Of a stretch of DNA of 28,726 nt, positions 2,863 to 28,493 are shown piece after piece. The stretch is from a virus. Location: the IMG/VR virus record IMGVR_UViG_3300005077_000936, positions 1 through 28,726 of that record, one strand, 5' to 3'. The first letter of the stretch is position 1; each line of letters opens with the position of its first letter. Position numbers and translations under genes: made by a program. A model generated the notes under the pieces. That model had not been told where the DNA came from, searched no databases, and saw nothing but the letters and a program-made list of their open reading frames with translations.

Positions 2863-3146
2863 CCAAAAGGATCACTAACTGTAGATTGGTTAATAAATGT
2901 TGCAGTATTAAGATCAAGTCCTGTTTCTACAGATTTAATGTAGTTGTAAAACATCTCAAGCCTTATTTCAAAGGTATAATCATTCATAGTTTCAAGCTGA
3001 CTCTCTGTAACAGTGGGAAATATAGTGTCAGCATATACAAAGAGATTCATCCCATTATATGTCTTGGGATATCCTGTCATAATTACACCATCTCTGTATT
3101 TGTAGATAGTTATGACAAGTGATCTTTTTATTCCGTTATTTTCCAT
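2850..3146 (-). CDS. Hypothetical virion protein, paralogue of the N-terminal domain of 3146-3751
   Basis: Start likely ATG 3146 (MENNGIKRS, TAATG coupling); aligns with MSDNNGTKRS...GYPKTY.G of the upstream gene. Confidence 0.7.
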   Translation of the reverse strand: MENNGIKRSLVITIYKYRDGVIMTGYPKTYNGMNLFVYADTIFPTVTESQLETMNDYTFEIRLEMFYNYIKSVETGLDLNTATFINQSTVSDPFGCHN

Positions 3147-3751
3147 TATACCTTTTGACAAACATAGTTAGAGAATGCAATGCTGTAAGTAATCTCATAA
3201 GAGACACTGAATTCTGCAACAAGTTCAATATTCTTTGTTGCTGAGAAGGTATATATGGCACTGAGCTCCTGAGTAGGAGTTCCACCTTCTTCTGTTACTG
3301 TCCAGTAATCAAATTGTGCTCCTGATGCAGGAACTGCTCTTACAGTTACAGAATCATTTTCATATGCAATTGTAGAGCCATATACTGCCCCAAGTGCTTC
3401 GTTGTTTGATGTTACATCAACAACATAATAACTTGAAGGTAATGGACAACCTGTAAGGTCAACAATCTCTGCTTCTGAACCTGCAATAATATCAGTATCA
3501 AAGTCAAGACCTGATTCTTGTGACTCTACCCACAGGATAAAATCAGCAAGCCTTGCCTGATAAGTAACATCACTCATTTCTGCAAGCTGAGAGTCATTAA
3601 TAGCAGTATACTCTGTACCTGTCCAATCTGTCCATGTTGATGATGCTGTCATTCCATCATAAGTCTTAGGATAGCCTGATGCTATAACAGCTCCTTCATA
3701 TTTGGTAACTACTACCTTAAGTGATCTTTTTGTTCCATTATTATCTGACAT
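3146..3751 (-). CDS. Hypothetical virion protein with C-terminal InlB B-repeat/Flg_new-like domain
   Basis: 201 aa; VTVRAVPASGAQFDYW...YTF...NIELVAEF is typical of the divergent InlB B-repeat. Confidence 0.7.
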   Translation of the reverse strand: MSDNNGTKRSLKVVVTKYEGAVIASGYPKTYDGMTASSTWTDWTGTEYTAINDSQLAEMSDVTYQARLADFILWVESQESGLDFDTDIIAGSEAEIVDLTGCPLPSSYYVVDVTSNNEALGAVYGSTIAYENDSVTVRAVPASGAQFDYWTVTEEGGTPTQELSAIYTFSATKNIELVAEFSVSYEITYSIAFSNYVCQKV

Positions 3752-3762
3752 GGCAATTAGTA

Positions 3763-6045
3763 TTATGGTGTTGGTATTATTTGTATTCCCTCTTCTATTT
3801 CGTAGACAATCACATAGTCACCAGGATCTGTAAACATACATCCTGTAACAGGATCAAGCATATTTATGAGTCTCCAGTTATTCTCAGGATCAGCTGTATC
3901 AGTTATAACTACTCTGACATAGAACCTATAATATTTATCAAAATAAACATTGTAGAATGGATGTACATATCTGCACCATGAAGAATTATCAATGTCACAG
4001 ATATCCTTATGTACAGGTTGTGCCATTTCATGATAGAAGTAGAAATCACTTTGAGTATCATCATATGCTATAGCATAAATATACTCTATTCCTATTGGTT
4101 GTAAATATGATGCCTGAGTTGAGTAGCTAAAATTAGCAGTATCAATGGTAGCCTGATAATAAGAAATTCTTGTATCTGCCTGTGAATGGCTATCATTGCA
4201 CTCTACATCAGGAAGTCCATTTGTTGTATTAAGTAGTGATATAGTAAGCTTCTTCTCTGAATCATTCCAAGTTATGGTAGAAGAGAAATGTGCCCTTAAG
4301 TAGATAGTAGCTCCTACATCACTACATCCTGTAGCAACTTTTATGTTAAACAAGAAATTTCTGTAATGATTTATATTACTATTGAGTGGAGAATAGTTGG
4401 TATAATAGGTTGTTGCAATCAGAGCATTATAATTGTTTTTATACCTATCATAGTCAACAGTTTGTTCAAATATTAATGTTATTACATTTCCTACTTTGCT
4501 GATTGTAGCTGAACCTGTCTGATTTACACAAGATAGTGCAGTTCCATATGATCCAGCAGTACAAGCAGTTCTTTTCCTCATCTTTACTGTCTGAGTAAGT
4601 GCTCCTGTTGTAGTAACAGTACCATTTGAAGAGCCCATATAAGAACTGTGATACTTAAATAAATCACAGGTAGCATGATTAAAGGAAGCAAGCATATCAA
4701 ATGTTACCACATAATTACATGTAGCTTCATCCCAAACCATTACAGGAGTAGTATCATCAATTATATTTGCATCAGGATCAATGCAATCACATTCAAAAGT
4801 AGTGAGACATTTAAAGTATAAGCTCCAGCTTGTTGCAAGATTTTCTGGTTCCATTATTCTTGGAGTAACGTGAATCAGAAGATAATCTCCAAGAGTATAA
4901 GTAAATTCAGTTAAGTCACATACACATTGAATGCTTTGAGAACTGAACCTTTTTGGATTTGCATTATAATCTGTACTGTTCTGTTGTGATCCTATAATCC
5001 ATTCATCAATGACAACAGGATTTTCAGGATCAAGTACTGACACATAAGATATAGTTACTTTATCAGCAACTGCAAGTGCATAAAACCAATATGCAAAGTA
5101 ATTGGTACTTCCATCATCAGAAAGCATGAATACAAATTCTCTCTCTGCATCCTGAAGCGGATCTACATTTGCAGTAAAACTTACTACCATTGGATAGGTA
5201 GGATTTGTACCTTGTGTAGAAGAACAATTGATTTCATCTACTGTGATAAAATCAAGACATTCTATTAAATCAGGAGCATATCTTGAACCTTGTTCATAGG
5301 AAGATGTATACTTGTAGAAGTTAATCCAAATGTACTCTATGACAGGATAAAGGTCTCCTGACATTACAGGCTCATCAGTAAATGGATGAGTTGCCTGAAT
5401 AAGAGGGTCACTTCCCACTCCTGTTCTGAATACAATATCTCCATCAACACTTCCGAGATGCCAAGAAATAAGATAATCTCCTATTTCATTTCCTAATGAT
5501 ACAACCTCTCCTACACTAAAAAGACCTACTCCACCCTCATAAGATTCAAAAGCAAGACTAAAGTCATCACATGGAGTATAAGTAAGATAACATATTTCTT
5601 CATTTGTCACGCAAGGGACATAATCTTCATCTTCAGGAACATTTGGTTTTGTCTGCCCTGTAGGAAGATTAGTGGAAACATAATATTCTGTAAGAGTATT
5701 ACAGCAATACTGGCCCGTATTTTCCTCTTCTTCTGTTTCACATTCCCACTCTGAACACTCCCAATATGTTGCAGGTGGAGGTACTATAATTTCTTCTTCC
5801 TGACATACATGATCAATAAACTGTATTCTCATGTATTCTATAGGAACATCTTCTTCATCTGGGTCAATTACAACTGGAGGATCTGTACTGCAATCAACAT
5901 GACTTCTTACTTGAGCAAGATAGTATTTTGATATATCACAATATCTTACAGGATTACAAGCAACCCCATATTTTTTCTGTGATATAAAAAGATGTGCTAT
6001 ATCAAGCAGATCACAGCAATCTATGTTACAATCAATTGCAACCAC
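3763..6045 (-). CDS. Large Cys-rich putative virion structural protein
   Basis: 760-aa ORF (GTG start overlapping the upstream stop), beta-rich and acidic with many Cys pairs; lies in the structural operon. Confidence 0.7.
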   Translation of the reverse strand: MVAIDCNIDCCDLLDIAHLFISQKKYGVACNPVRYCDISKYYLAQVRSHVDCSTDPPVVIDPDEEDVPIEYMRIQFIDHVCQEEEIIVPPPATYWECSEWECETEEEENTGQYCCNTLTEYYVSTNLPTGQTKPNVPEDEDYVPCVTNEEICYLTYTPCDDFSLAFESYEGGVGLFSVGEVVSLGNEIGDYLISWHLGSVDGDIVFRTGVGSDPLIQATHPFTDEPVMSGDLYPVIEYIWINFYKYTSSYEQGSRYAPDLIECLDFITVDEINCSSTQGTNPTYPMVVSFTANVDPLQDAEREFVFMLSDDGSTNYFAYWFYALAVADKVTISYVSVLDPENPVVIDEWIIGSQQNSTDYNANPKRFSSQSIQCVCDLTEFTYTLGDYLLIHVTPRIMEPENLATSWSLYFKCLTTFECDCIDPDANIIDDTTPVMVWDEATCNYVVTFDMLASFNHATCDLFKYHSSYMGSSNGTVTTTGALTQTVKMRKRTACTAGSYGTALSCVNQTGSATISKVGNVITLIFEQTVDYDRYKNNYNALIATTYYTNYSPLNSNINHYRNFLFNIKVATGCSDVGATIYLRAHFSSTITWNDSEKKLTISLLNTTNGLPDVECNDSHSQADTRISYYQATIDTANFSYSTQASYLQPIGIEYIYAIAYDDTQSDFYFYHEMAQPVHKDICDIDNSSWCRYVHPFYNVYFDKYYRFYVRVVITDTADPENNWRLINMLDPVTGCMFTDPGDYVIVYEIEEGIQIIPTP

Positions 6046-25945: not shown

Positions 25946-25982
25946 TATTGGAAGAGAGAAGGACACTTACAAGACATACTCT

Positions 25983-26059
25983 ATACATTTACCTCAGTTG
26001 GTTAGAGGATGAGCCTTCAGAGCCCAGTGTCCCCAGTTCAATTCTGGGAATGTAGTCCA
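25983..26059 (+). tRNA. tRNA with UCA anticodon (opal suppressor-type; amino acid identity unknown)
   Basis: Acceptor ATACATT/AATGTAG (1:72 mismatch), D arm CCTC-AGTTGGTTA-GAGG, anticodon arm TGAGC-CT[TCA]GA-GCCCA (one mismatch), 5-nt variable loop, T arm CCCAG-TTCAATT-CTGGG, discriminator T, encoded CCA. Confidence 0.8.
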
Positions 26060-26093
26060 AAGTGTCCTTCTCTTTTCATAATCTTTTAAGACT

Positions 26094-27076: not shown

Positions 27077-27183
27077 GGGGGAGCTGATAATAATAGTGTC
27101 ATCTGAACACTTACAAGCCAATTAAAGGTTAATCAATTAGAACTGAGATCTAATCAAAGTTGGTTCAAATCCAACCTCCCCCA
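27077..27183 (+). ncRNA. tRNA-like RNA with ~30-35 nt insertion
   Basis: Perfect acceptor GGGGGAG/CTCCCCC+A and T arm GTTGG-TTCAAAT-CCAAC; 107 nt; non-canonical D and anticodon regions. Confidence 0.65.
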
Positions 27184-27227
27184 CTTTTTTTAATTCACAT
27201 TTTTATTCATTTAACACCCTAAAAAAC

Positions 27228-27368
27228 ATGGGACATCCAGAAGGACAAAGCCTTGAGGAAGTAAAAAACCTTGAAGCTGAAGGCAACGCAGAAGCTGCAC
27301 AGGTAACAGAAGCAAAAAATGCTGAAGAACCTCAGGCAGATAATACTGCTGAAGAGCCAAAAGAGTAA
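27228..27368 (+). CDS. Small highly acidic protein (46 aa)
   Basis: Below the track cut-off: MGHPEGQSLEEVKNLEAEGNAEAAQVTEAKNAEEPQADNTAEEPKE; A-rich leader. Confidence 0.7.
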   Translation: MGHPEGQSLEEVKNLEAEGNAEAAQVTEAKNAEEPQADNTAEEPKE

Positions 27369-27385
27369 CCCCGATTACCCAAACT

Positions 27386-27455
27386 AAGCTACTTACAATA
27401 TCTTTTTATGGCTGATAACCATATCATGCTGCCATCATGTAAGATTAAGTAGCTT
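27386..27455 (+). other. Long irregular hairpin immediately 5' of tRNA-Glu
   Basis: Nested AAGCTACTTA/TAAGTAGCTT, ATCTT/AAGAT, ATGGC/GCCAT and TGATA/TATCA stems. Confidence 0.6.
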
Positions 27456-27460
27456 TCTTT

Positions 27461-27532
27461 GCCCCTTTCATCTAACGGTTAGGATACAAGATTTTCAGTC
27501 TTGTCATATGAGTTCGATTCTCATAGGGGGTA
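27461..27532 (+). tRNA. tRNA-Glu(TTC)
   Basis: Acceptor GCCCCTT/AGGGGGT, anticodon arm CAAGA-TT[TTC]AG-TCTTG, T arm ATGAG-TTCGATT-CTCAT; CCA not encoded (CAA). Confidence 0.9.
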
Positions 27533-27541
27533 CAAAGTAAA

Positions 27542-28060
27542 TTAACATCAGAGGCCGAGAGTTGAAGAGTTACTGTTGCAGGTTTATTTTCAATTCAATA
27601 ATGTGTGTCAAGAAGGCTATGGCCTGCACACCTGATGTTAAAAGAATCTCTAAGGTGTAGAATGGAGGATGCATCTGTACATGAATGCTGTTAGAAGTTG
27701 CTGGCAAAGCCGATAAATAATTCCTCAGTTTTGCAACTCTATTATGGTCATGGGAGATTCTGATCTTAGGTTAATGATGATTCCTTTGTAAGTATGGTCA
27801 CATAACAGTGAGGCTGATGTTCCAGAAAGCATAAAAATGATGGCAGTAATGTCATATGTACTGAACCCTTGAGAAAGGTTAACGAATTGGATAATGTTCC
27901 AACAGTGCAAGTCAGTTCTCGGCAAGATGATCATGTAAATCAATATCGCCATTGTAGAAATACATATAAGTGAATATCGGTGTTGATCATTGTGACCCTA
28001 CTCTTATGGTAGCTACCTCTATGGGGTAGCTGAACAATAAGAAAGAGGGTGCTAACTAAA
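27542..28060 (+). ncRNA. Candidate large ornate non-coding RNA
   Basis: No credible ORF. Nested long-range stems TTAACATCAG/CTGATGTTAA, AGAATCTC/GAGATTCT, GGTCACA/TGTGACC, GAGGCTGA/TCAGTTCTC, ATCAATATCG/CGGTGTTGAT, plus GNRA-capped hairpins. Confidence 0.65.
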
Positions 28061-28072
28061 CTGTTGTATTTT

Positions 28073-28125
28073 AAGCTCTGAAGAAAGCTCTCTTGATCCA
28101 GAGTGAGTACTCAGAGCTTGTTTTT
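28073..28125 (+). terminator. Hairpin/terminator-like element closing the ncRNA cluster
   Basis: AAGCTCTGA/TCAGAGCTT stem with inner GCTCT/AGAGT, followed by GTTTTT. Confidence 0.5.
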
Positions 28126-28145
28126 AACCTTAAAAAACAGACACC

Positions 28146-28493
28146 ATGAAATTAACACTATCTACTGTCCTTCCTTTTGGAAAGTATAAAGGGAAGTTAA
28201 TCAATGATCTCATTCCAGAACCAAGTACTACACTTGAAGCCAGAGAATTAAGGCAAATAGTAAGATATTTTGGTTGGATAAAAAAGGAAACTTCTTATGA
28301 GCTTTCCGAAGAAGTAGTTGATAGAATTAAAACTATCTTGAAAATGTCTGCTAAGATATCTTCTGATATTCCAAGCTATTCGAAAAGCTATTTAGGAAGA
28401 TATTCTAAAAAAGGAAGATTAGAGCATTGGAATGATATGGGGGCAATGAATGACATATCTTTTCAAGATTGTTATGGAGACTTTGGATACTAA
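28146..28493 (+). CDS. Protein with N-terminal LPFGKYKG (DUF3820/ExoX C-terminal-like) motif
   Basis: 115 aa; LPFGKYKGKLINDL...YFGW; AAAACAGACACC leader. Confidence 0.75.
   Translation: MKLTLSTVLPFGKYKGKLINDLIPEPSTTLEARELRQIVRYFGWIKKETSYELSEEVVDRIKTILKMSAKISSDIPSYSKSYLGRYSKKGRLEHWNDMGAMNDISFQDCYGDFGY

Follow-up and report, generated by a model that had tools for sequence, protein, structure and literature searches.

Genomic context of the non-coding stretch

The window analysed in this work (28,726 nt) represents the first 28.7 kb of a 98.7-kb virus record, IMGVR_UViG_3300005077_000936, and it encodes crAss-like portal, large terminase, and major head proteins. The + strand carries the genes from approximately 23 kb onward, and the early region is loosely packed, holding a tRNA(UCA), a tRNA look-alike, a tRNA-Glu, and several structured gaps. 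The tRNA-Glu (anticodon UUC, 27461-27533, + strand) was called by ARAGORN and scored 54.3 bits on the Rfam tRNA model. Directly downstream of it, as stated in the first-pass annotation, lies a stretch (27542-28060) that was proposed there to be one ornate non-coding RNA of approximately 520 nt made of three closed domains. No open reading frame was found between 27534 and 28145 in any of the six frames, nor when TGA or TAG was read through. Coding under recoded stops was ruled out, as many stops break every frame on both strands. The next gene starts at 28146, approximately 90 nt past the conserved RNA described below. A scan of the stretch with the covariance models of Rfam 15, at E values up to 10 and with lax filters, gave no family match, including the models of GOLLD, ROOL, RNase P RNA, tmRNA, group I and group II introns, 6S, and SRP RNA. 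The sole signals were chance matches to snoRNA and miRNA models, far below their gathering scores.

Folding energy of the stretch and its parts

The minimum free energy of the whole region was -144.9 kcal/mol on the + strand (z -2.7) and -113 on the - strand (z -1.7). Among fourteen arbitrary coding windows of the same genome, z lay between 0 and -3.0 and two windows reached the value of the candidate, and after correction for composition the residual z was -0.17, at the 40th percentile of 656 windows. The whole-region value is ordinary for this genome, and the thermodynamic case for one ornate 520-nt fold is weak. By the same composition-corrected measure, the window at the tRNA-Glu (27461) is itself unremarkable. 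As a true tRNA does not stand out, folding energy neither proves nor disproves an RNA here.

The first proposed domain (27542-27641, + strand) folds as it had been drawn, into an orphan Y-shaped element with a closing stem of 9-10 bp and two arms. Its z was -4.0 (MFE frequency 0.30), none of 200 shuffles folded as well, and it ranks in the top 0.9% of the 100-nt windows of the genome. The second (27643-27761, + strand) could not be upheld as a closed domain: it folds no better than shuffles (z -1.1) and has no homologues, and nothing supports its loop-loop pseudoknot. In the third, the middle gave z +1.2 to -0.9 and the 3' hairpin (27985-28055) gave z -3.9. The expectation that the stretch folds better than shuffles was thus borne out for domain 1 and the 3' hairpin, but not for domain 2, and the value of the region as a whole is an ordinary one. 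Further downstream, a hairpin followed by a U run (28073-28126, + strand, z -2.7) is a possible terminator of the RNA's transcript; a simple terminator scan made no call there.

Relatives and distribution of the RNA

Neither a blastn comparison of the window region with 50,697 phage records (E 1e-5) nor searches of IMG/VR for the 3' half of the tRNA-Glu and for the Ro60-like gene of this genome returned a match. Synteny was followed through the downstream 115-aa gene, and the 560-720-nt gaps upstream of several of its relatives shared no sequence with the window and did not match R1, the covariance model of the RNA core described below. These gaps are unrelated in sequence and therefore gap synteny is not evidence; one of them contains an uncalled small membrane ORF. 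Relatives of the upstream 154-aa and 170-aa genes had no comparable gap, and the contigs reached through relatives of TerL proved either too distant or of insufficient length. The family is present on L190, a 97-kb contig that comes from the sample of one TerL relative; its copy is no closer to that of the window than other members are.

Colinear conserved blocks are common to positions 27766-28056 of the window and bases 2911-3359 of phage phi14:2. An exact 18-mer of the 3' block was found on 94 IMG/VR contigs, approximately 88 of which show the same block order. A second, independent 18-mer from the middle of the RNA was found on at least 120 IMG/VR contigs, including 78 new loci. The 5' strand of the 3' helix was present within two changes in 48 of these 78 loci, and when 330 nt were searched, only 25 of them were seen to keep the 3' block with no more than three changes. 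How the first sample was collected thus accounts in part for the near-invariance of the 3' block there. In total, the family occurs on at least 170 distinct IMG/VR contigs, and their span of 4-373 kb implies that several phage types carry the RNA. Its members are 220-500 nt long, and their length varies through internal inserts only.

Among cultured phages, only Cellulophaga phages matched. The whole RNA is present in phi14:2, and the 145-kb phages phi4:1 and phi17:2 carry the 3' hairpin module alone, which means that this module can exist on its own. In phi4:1 (NC_021788) the module occupies 2510-2600, in a 143-nt gap bounded on one side by a homologue of phi14:2 g004 and on the other by the next annotated gene. 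Across 185,579 species genomes the 18-mer had 35 exact matches, 32 of them coding coincidences and three with the architecture of the RNA. All three are on MAG contigs, and therefore the RNA is phage-borne and not a copy of a host RNA.

Architecture of the conserved RNA

The family alignments and the core covariance match place the whole conserved RNA of the window, a divergent member, at 27766-28056 on the + strand. The family core consists of a GUAA hairpin, a 7-bp long-range helix, a hairpin with the loop CUUGAGAAA, and then the GAGUUCUC block. The model R1 covers the 104 positions of this central core and was built from 34 other members, with the window left out. On R1 the window core (27831-27923) scored 67 bits (E 3.5e-11) over the full length, model positions 1-104, and all 17 modelled core pairs form. 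Most members score 75-105 bits, so the window has a divergent copy; the R1 scan found it only once in the 98.7-kb genome.

At the 5' end, supported by the alignment and by covariation counts, is H1 (27768-27785, + strand), a hairpin with an AGG/CCU stem and a 12-nt loop. The family has a conserved loop of 12-13 nt here; in the window the stem forms and the loop departs from the consensus. The H2 position with its variable insert follows (27786-27830, + strand). H2 covaries in other members and is nearly lost in the window, where 3-4 of its seven pairs are possible. After a conserved single strand comes Hc (27840-27855, + strand), a 6-bp hairpin with a GUAA tetraloop, in which all six pairs have changed on both sides across the family. 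The 7-bp long-range helix (27857-27909, + strand) joins 27857-27863 with 27903-27909 and encloses Hd and a variable hairpin (27887-27902); 99.7% of its alignment cells are paired and six of seven pairs have changed on both sides. Hd (27864-27880, + strand) has a 4-bp stem, with three of four pairs changed on both sides, and the near-invariant 9-nt loop CUUGAGAAA.

Between the long-range helix and He lies a conserved block given as GAGUUCUCAGC. Its UUCUC(A/G)G part (27916-27922, + strand) is complementary over seven bases to the Hd loop (27869-27875), and 98.3% of cells can pair. The variation in these two segments is one-sided and wobble-compatible, with no double changes, which makes a pseudoknot plausible and unproven; judged from this complementarity, the invariant Hd loop probably pairs with the downstream block in this way. 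He (27926-27991, + strand) is an 8-bp helix of 27926-27933 with 27984-27991, paired in 92.8% of cells and with six of eight pairs changed on both sides. It surrounds a variable insert holding a GAAA-capped hairpin, and the shortest members do not have it. In the window He lies between the GAGUUCUC block and the 3' helix, as in the family, and pairs at 8/8 positions although five of the eight pairs depart from the consensus.

The RNA closes with a bipartite 3' helix (27995-28050, + strand; z -3.9), formed by 27995-27999 with 28046-28050 and by 28002-28007 with 28037-28042. Its stem is near-invariant and its apical hairpin (28010-28032) is variable across the family; the base of this variable insert covaries (alignment columns 403-405 with 478-480). 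The window has the exact 18-mer at 28038-28055 and its partner block at 27994-28007, so the 3' helix is present, and the 3' end of the RNA reads GCUAA. The sequences of Hc, the long-range helix, Hd, and He in the window differ from the consensus and all of them pair; helices that have changed and are still paired represent good evidence for the fold.

Five of the stems that had been drawn by eye in the third domain turned out to be the conserved ones, kept by compensatory changes: the GUAA hairpin, AACC/GGUU, UUGGA/UCCAA, UCUUAU/AUAAGA, and the hairpin at 28010-28032. On the other hand, relatives do not preserve the GGUCACA/UGUGACC stem spanning 190 nt or the GAGGCUGA/UCAGUUCUC stem. The variable H2 insert takes part in both of these stems, and the UUCUC block is instead complementary to the conserved loop at 27868-27876.

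Covariation and the RNA strand

By comparing 44 sequences, 95.4% of cells were paired in Hc, the long-range helix, Hd, and the candidate pseudoknot, versus 81.2% in shuffles and 36-47% when the strands were slid. In this set 15 of 24 core pairs had changed on both sides, and the covariation score of the core was 0.343 versus 0.089, with none of 500 shuffles as high. For the outer helices (H1, H2, He, and the 3' helix; n = 27) the corresponding paired fraction was 91.3% versus 85.1% in shuffles, and 16 pairs had changed on both sides where 6.0 were expected, again a value that none of 500 shuffles reached. Compensatory changes are present in six helices, so the covariation that was anticipated in viral-metagenome homologues was found, above the level of shuffles. 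Many pairs are G-U, one core pair being UG in 20 sequences, and this fixes the RNA strand as +. Positions 27766-28056 are therefore very likely a single-copy gene of a structured non-coding RNA of approximately 290 nt, a divergent member of a widespread phage family.

The phi14:2 homologue and its expression

The phi14:2 homologue (NC_021806) shares with the window's RNA the blocks, their order, and the helices, and its core scored 83.7 bits on R1. Like the window's RNA, it is located in the early region of a crAss-like phage of approximately 100 kb, in this case one of marine Flavobacteriia. The phi14:2 copy differs in its length of approximately 450 nt, with larger inserts, and in its position, which is after a protein gene and not a tRNA, and approximately 670-700 nt ahead of a tmRNA gene. 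By mapping of the record, it falls in the g004-g005 region; we infer that "g005" is the ORF 3590-3910 of NC_021806.

According to Drobysheva et al. (bioRxiv 10.1101/2020.03.07.982082), rightward transcription of the phi14:2 intergenic regions exceeds that of most genes from the first time point and persists, and the RNA level is uncoupled from that of early mRNAs. The same study names the g004-g005 and g005-g006 regions "long non-coding RNAs" without assigned function and gives their transcript level only, with no family, boundaries, or structure in the text consulted. The g005-g006 RNA is a tmRNA gene (4031-4500 by ARAGORN; tag peptide GSSVQKLAMVA), which scored 46.0 bits on Rfam RF00023 (gathering score 47; E 2.6e-16). 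By homology, the family of the window's RNA is what supplies the abundant, early, and persistent g004-g005 RNA described in that study. We hold it as virtually certain that the window contains a real conserved structured RNA of the phi14:2 g004-g005 type.

Boundaries and gene neighbourhood

The ends of the unit are marked by its neighbours. In one locus (L063) two copies stand head to tail and the second begins 5 nt after the first, in three others (L069, L076, and L109) only a few bases separate the end of a tRNA from the 5' end of the RNA, and a tmRNA gene lies 13-150 nt 3' of the RNA in 10 of the 93 loci scanned. Two more loci, phi14:2 included, have a tmRNA approximately 700 nt downstream. 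As tandem copies, abutting tRNAs, and nearby tmRNAs delimit it, the unit is the approximately 290 nt from 27766 to 28056. The claim of a 520-nt RNA consequently stands for an ORF-free, conserved multi-helix RNA near a tRNA, and not for its length. A single RNA from 27542 to 28060, with domains 1 and 2 as a lineage-specific 5' extension, would agree with a contiguous and ORF-free stretch on one strand, with the significant folding of domain 1 (z -4.0), and with the lack of any detected promoter or terminator between the domains. We nevertheless regard it as improbable. Neither domain 1 nor domain 2 (27542-27761) has a blastn match in 1.3 Mb of related family loci, domain 2 folds like shuffles, the 5' boundary of the family is sharp at the equivalent of 27766, and the other members, at 220-500 nt, vary by internal inserts alone. 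The 232 nt between the tRNA-Glu and 27766 are a lineage-specific spacer with one stable orphan hairpin structure, and domain 1, which thus did not hold as part of a larger RNA, could represent either a small RNA of this lineage or a hairpin used in processing.

Approximately one fifth of the loci adjoin tRNA or tmRNA genes, always on the same strand, and tRNA arrays flank some of them. ARAGORN detected no tRNA or tmRNA within 1.5-2 kb in approximately 75% of the loci, and proximity to translation RNAs is therefore a tendency rather than a general rule. Clustering of the neighbourhoods of 93 loci for a protein partner revealed no universal neighbour. The commonest, phrog_15656, occurs in 23 of the 93 and is absent from the window's genome, and no downstream gene is constant across the family loci.

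These neighbourhoods bear on a cis-acting role, in which the RNA or its 3' helix would be a leader controlling the translation or stability of the next gene, with the purine-rich 3' strand as a masked ribosome-binding region. The GA-rich 3' strand does pair with a pyrimidine-rich strand, in 24 of the 64 loci that have a downstream ORF of at least 45 aa this ORF begins 9-60 nt past the 3' end, and the lone 3' hairpin modules of phi4:1 and phi17:2 sit in a short gap before the next annotated gene. However, what follows the RNA varies between tmRNA, tRNA, a second copy of the RNA, and unrelated ORFs, and the other 40 of the 64 loci have more than 60 nt, up to 1.1 kb, between the RNA and the next ORF. 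In the window the distance to the next gene is 90 nt, with the terminator-like hairpin in between. Together with the uncoupling from early mRNAs in phi14:2, this makes a leader very unlikely.

It appears scarcely credible that the conservation stems from an element acting as DNA, for instance an origin of replication, a packaging site, or the target of a homing endonuclease. Homing endonuclease genes do occur nearby, GIY-YIG in eight loci and HNH in the window's genome, but they are more simply explained as settlers beside a conserved gene. The helices are kept by compensatory changes, and if the opposite strand were read, the many G-U pairs would turn into A-C mismatches. Moreover, the orientation always agrees with that of flanking tRNA and tmRNA genes, and the homologue in phi14:2 is an abundant transcript.

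Comparison with known RNAs

GOLLD and ROOL are large RNAs of phages and prophages, with lengths of about 580 and 800 nt. Like them, the present RNA is phage-borne, has a complex structure, often lies beside tRNA genes, and is highly expressed, here as the phi14:2 homologue. Unlike them, it is much smaller (220-500 nt) and has different conserved blocks. The GOLLD and ROOL covariance models matched neither the window nor L083 nor phi14:2 at E values up to 10, and the suggestion of a divergent GOLLD or ROOL member was therefore set aside. The likeness could still extend to function, in the form of a self-assembling RNA-only particle or scaffold in which GNRA tetraloops and conserved loops would make intermolecular contacts. 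The conserved GUAA and GAAA tetraloops, the variable peripheral inserts, and the ornate fold of a phage-borne RNA near tRNA genes, highly expressed in phi14:2, are consistent with this, and ROOL and GOLLD, which share this context, form homo-oligomers (PMC12286853). The lack of any sequence or model similarity to either RNA and the much smaller size speak against it, and we rate such assembly as unlikely.

The tmRNA (RF00023) is a frequent immediate neighbour of the present RNA on the same strand, and both are stable RNAs of phage translation-RNA islands. The present RNA differs from it in having no tRNA-like ends, no tag reading frame, and no match to RF00023. A Y RNA of the YrlA type comes to mind since the window's genome has a Ro60-like gene 4.2 kb downstream (ORF 32218-34068), but in the consensus structure the ends of the present RNA form no terminal stem, and its + strand does not contain the ACUUACAA tag. 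A single-sequence search, of limited reach, for the Ro-like protein in five other carrier genomes, phi14:2 among them, gave no match. An ACTTACA at 27787 on the - strand was discarded as chance, with 13 such sites on that strand in 98.7 kb.

The conserved blocks match no family of Rfam 15, and no paper containing them was found. The 10,006 viral candidate RNAs of a 2023 survey (PMC10690425) may include the family. We place it as a new family among the large structured RNAs of phages that have no assigned function. The earlier suggestion of a new class holds in substance, although the family is not wholly undescribed: the phi14:2 homologue was seen as a transcript by RNA-seq in 2020, and no follow-up of that observation was found in the literature.

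Proposed role

We tentatively hypothesize that the RNA is a stable trans-acting molecule, released from the precursors of stable RNAs, and that its binding partner is a conserved part of the host's translation or RNA-metabolism machinery; we consider this reading possible and short of probable. The RNA would be transcribed together with neighbouring tRNA and tmRNA genes, and host tRNA-processing nucleases would trim it out of the precursor. It could then persist in a compact form in which the invariant loops and the 3' helix would bind a conserved host component, and this binding may help the phage to keep or redirect protein synthesis. The hypothesis is suggested by the high, early, and lasting level in phi14:2, by the tRNA and tmRNA neighbours, and by the loops and 3' helix, which are extremely conserved among phages otherwise without DNA similarity. 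It is also suggested by inserts that are placed at fixed peripheral sites and by the lack of a constant protein neighbour or downstream gene.

A bolder and rather doubtful extension is that the family represents a new functional class, either a compact ribozyme or an RNA that docks on the ribosome or on an enzyme handling tRNA or tmRNA. The near-invariant blocks, the inserts at fixed sites, and the very high and persistent expression would thereby be explained. If this were true, a docking RNA would cooperate with the tmRNA and tRNAs of the phage, either to reprogram host translation or to protect it. A possible lead is a loose likeness of the 3' helix, with one pyrimidine-rich and one purine-rich strand, to the duplex that a Shine-Dalgarno sequence forms with the anti-Shine-Dalgarno 3' end of 16S rRNA.

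Whichever role applies, there are few large and strongly conserved bacterial or phage RNAs without an assigned function, and such RNAs have repeatedly opened up new biochemistry. An unexplained "lncRNA" remark now becomes a defined gene with boundaries, a secondary structure, and a core covariance model, which puts knock-outs, pull-downs, and cryo-EM within direct reach. Cellulophaga baltica with phi14:2 is a cultured and genetically tractable pair in which the RNA is among the most abundant phage transcripts. For annotators, the family explains recurrent "gaps" of 0.3-0.5 kb in marine phage genomes.

Other features of the early region

Several further elements were observed around the RNA gene. 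A tRNA of normal length with the anticodon UCA ("SeC" in ARAGORN) lies at 25951-26077, inside an 18-bp inverted repeat whose 5' arm carries ACTTACAA. The tRNA look-alike at 27077-27183, in which a long internal expansion accompanies perfect acceptor and T arms, also carries ACTTACAA; it was not called by ARAGORN and scored 17.9 bits on the Rfam tRNA model over a part only. Directly 5' of the tRNA-Glu, a long hairpin (27376-27465) is the best local fold of the region (z -4.85), and its 5' arm carries ACTTACAA too. Altogether, ACTTACAA occurs at eight non-coding sites on the + strand between 25.9 and 34.3 kb and may serve as a promoter, as a site of processing, or as a tag bound by a protein. 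Expanded tRNA-like elements with acceptor and T-arm signatures, missed by ARAGORN, are held by several ORF-free gaps of 0.5-1.4 kb in the related 112-118-kb phages that share the 115-aa gene (approximately 5560-5660 in L016; 2300-2340 and 4160-4287 in L017), and one of them scored 35.6 bits on the Rfam tRNA model.

TGA still terminates several genes in the window. In two Logan contigs (703-1170 in L031 and 3313-3834 in L034), relatives of the 154-aa protein translate only with TGA as Trp, and related phages therefore appear to use a recoded stop. An A-rich leader (ACCYTAAAAAA, then CAGACAYC before ATG) recurs ahead of early genes at 27216, 28127, and 28500; as it precedes the 46-aa ORF at 27228-27368, this ORF is probably real. 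A free-standing HNH endonuclease gene is located 0.7 kb downstream of the RNA (28783-29322 of the genome). Further on, at 34702-35994, the genome encodes a PurZ-like adenylosuccinate synthetase homologue (phrog_1211), hinting at modified adenine in the phage DNA. After correction for composition, the most over-folded windows of the genome cluster on the + strand at 21.0-24.3 kb (e.g. at approximately 21251, 22121, and 23131), at and near the switch region, where coding is sparse.
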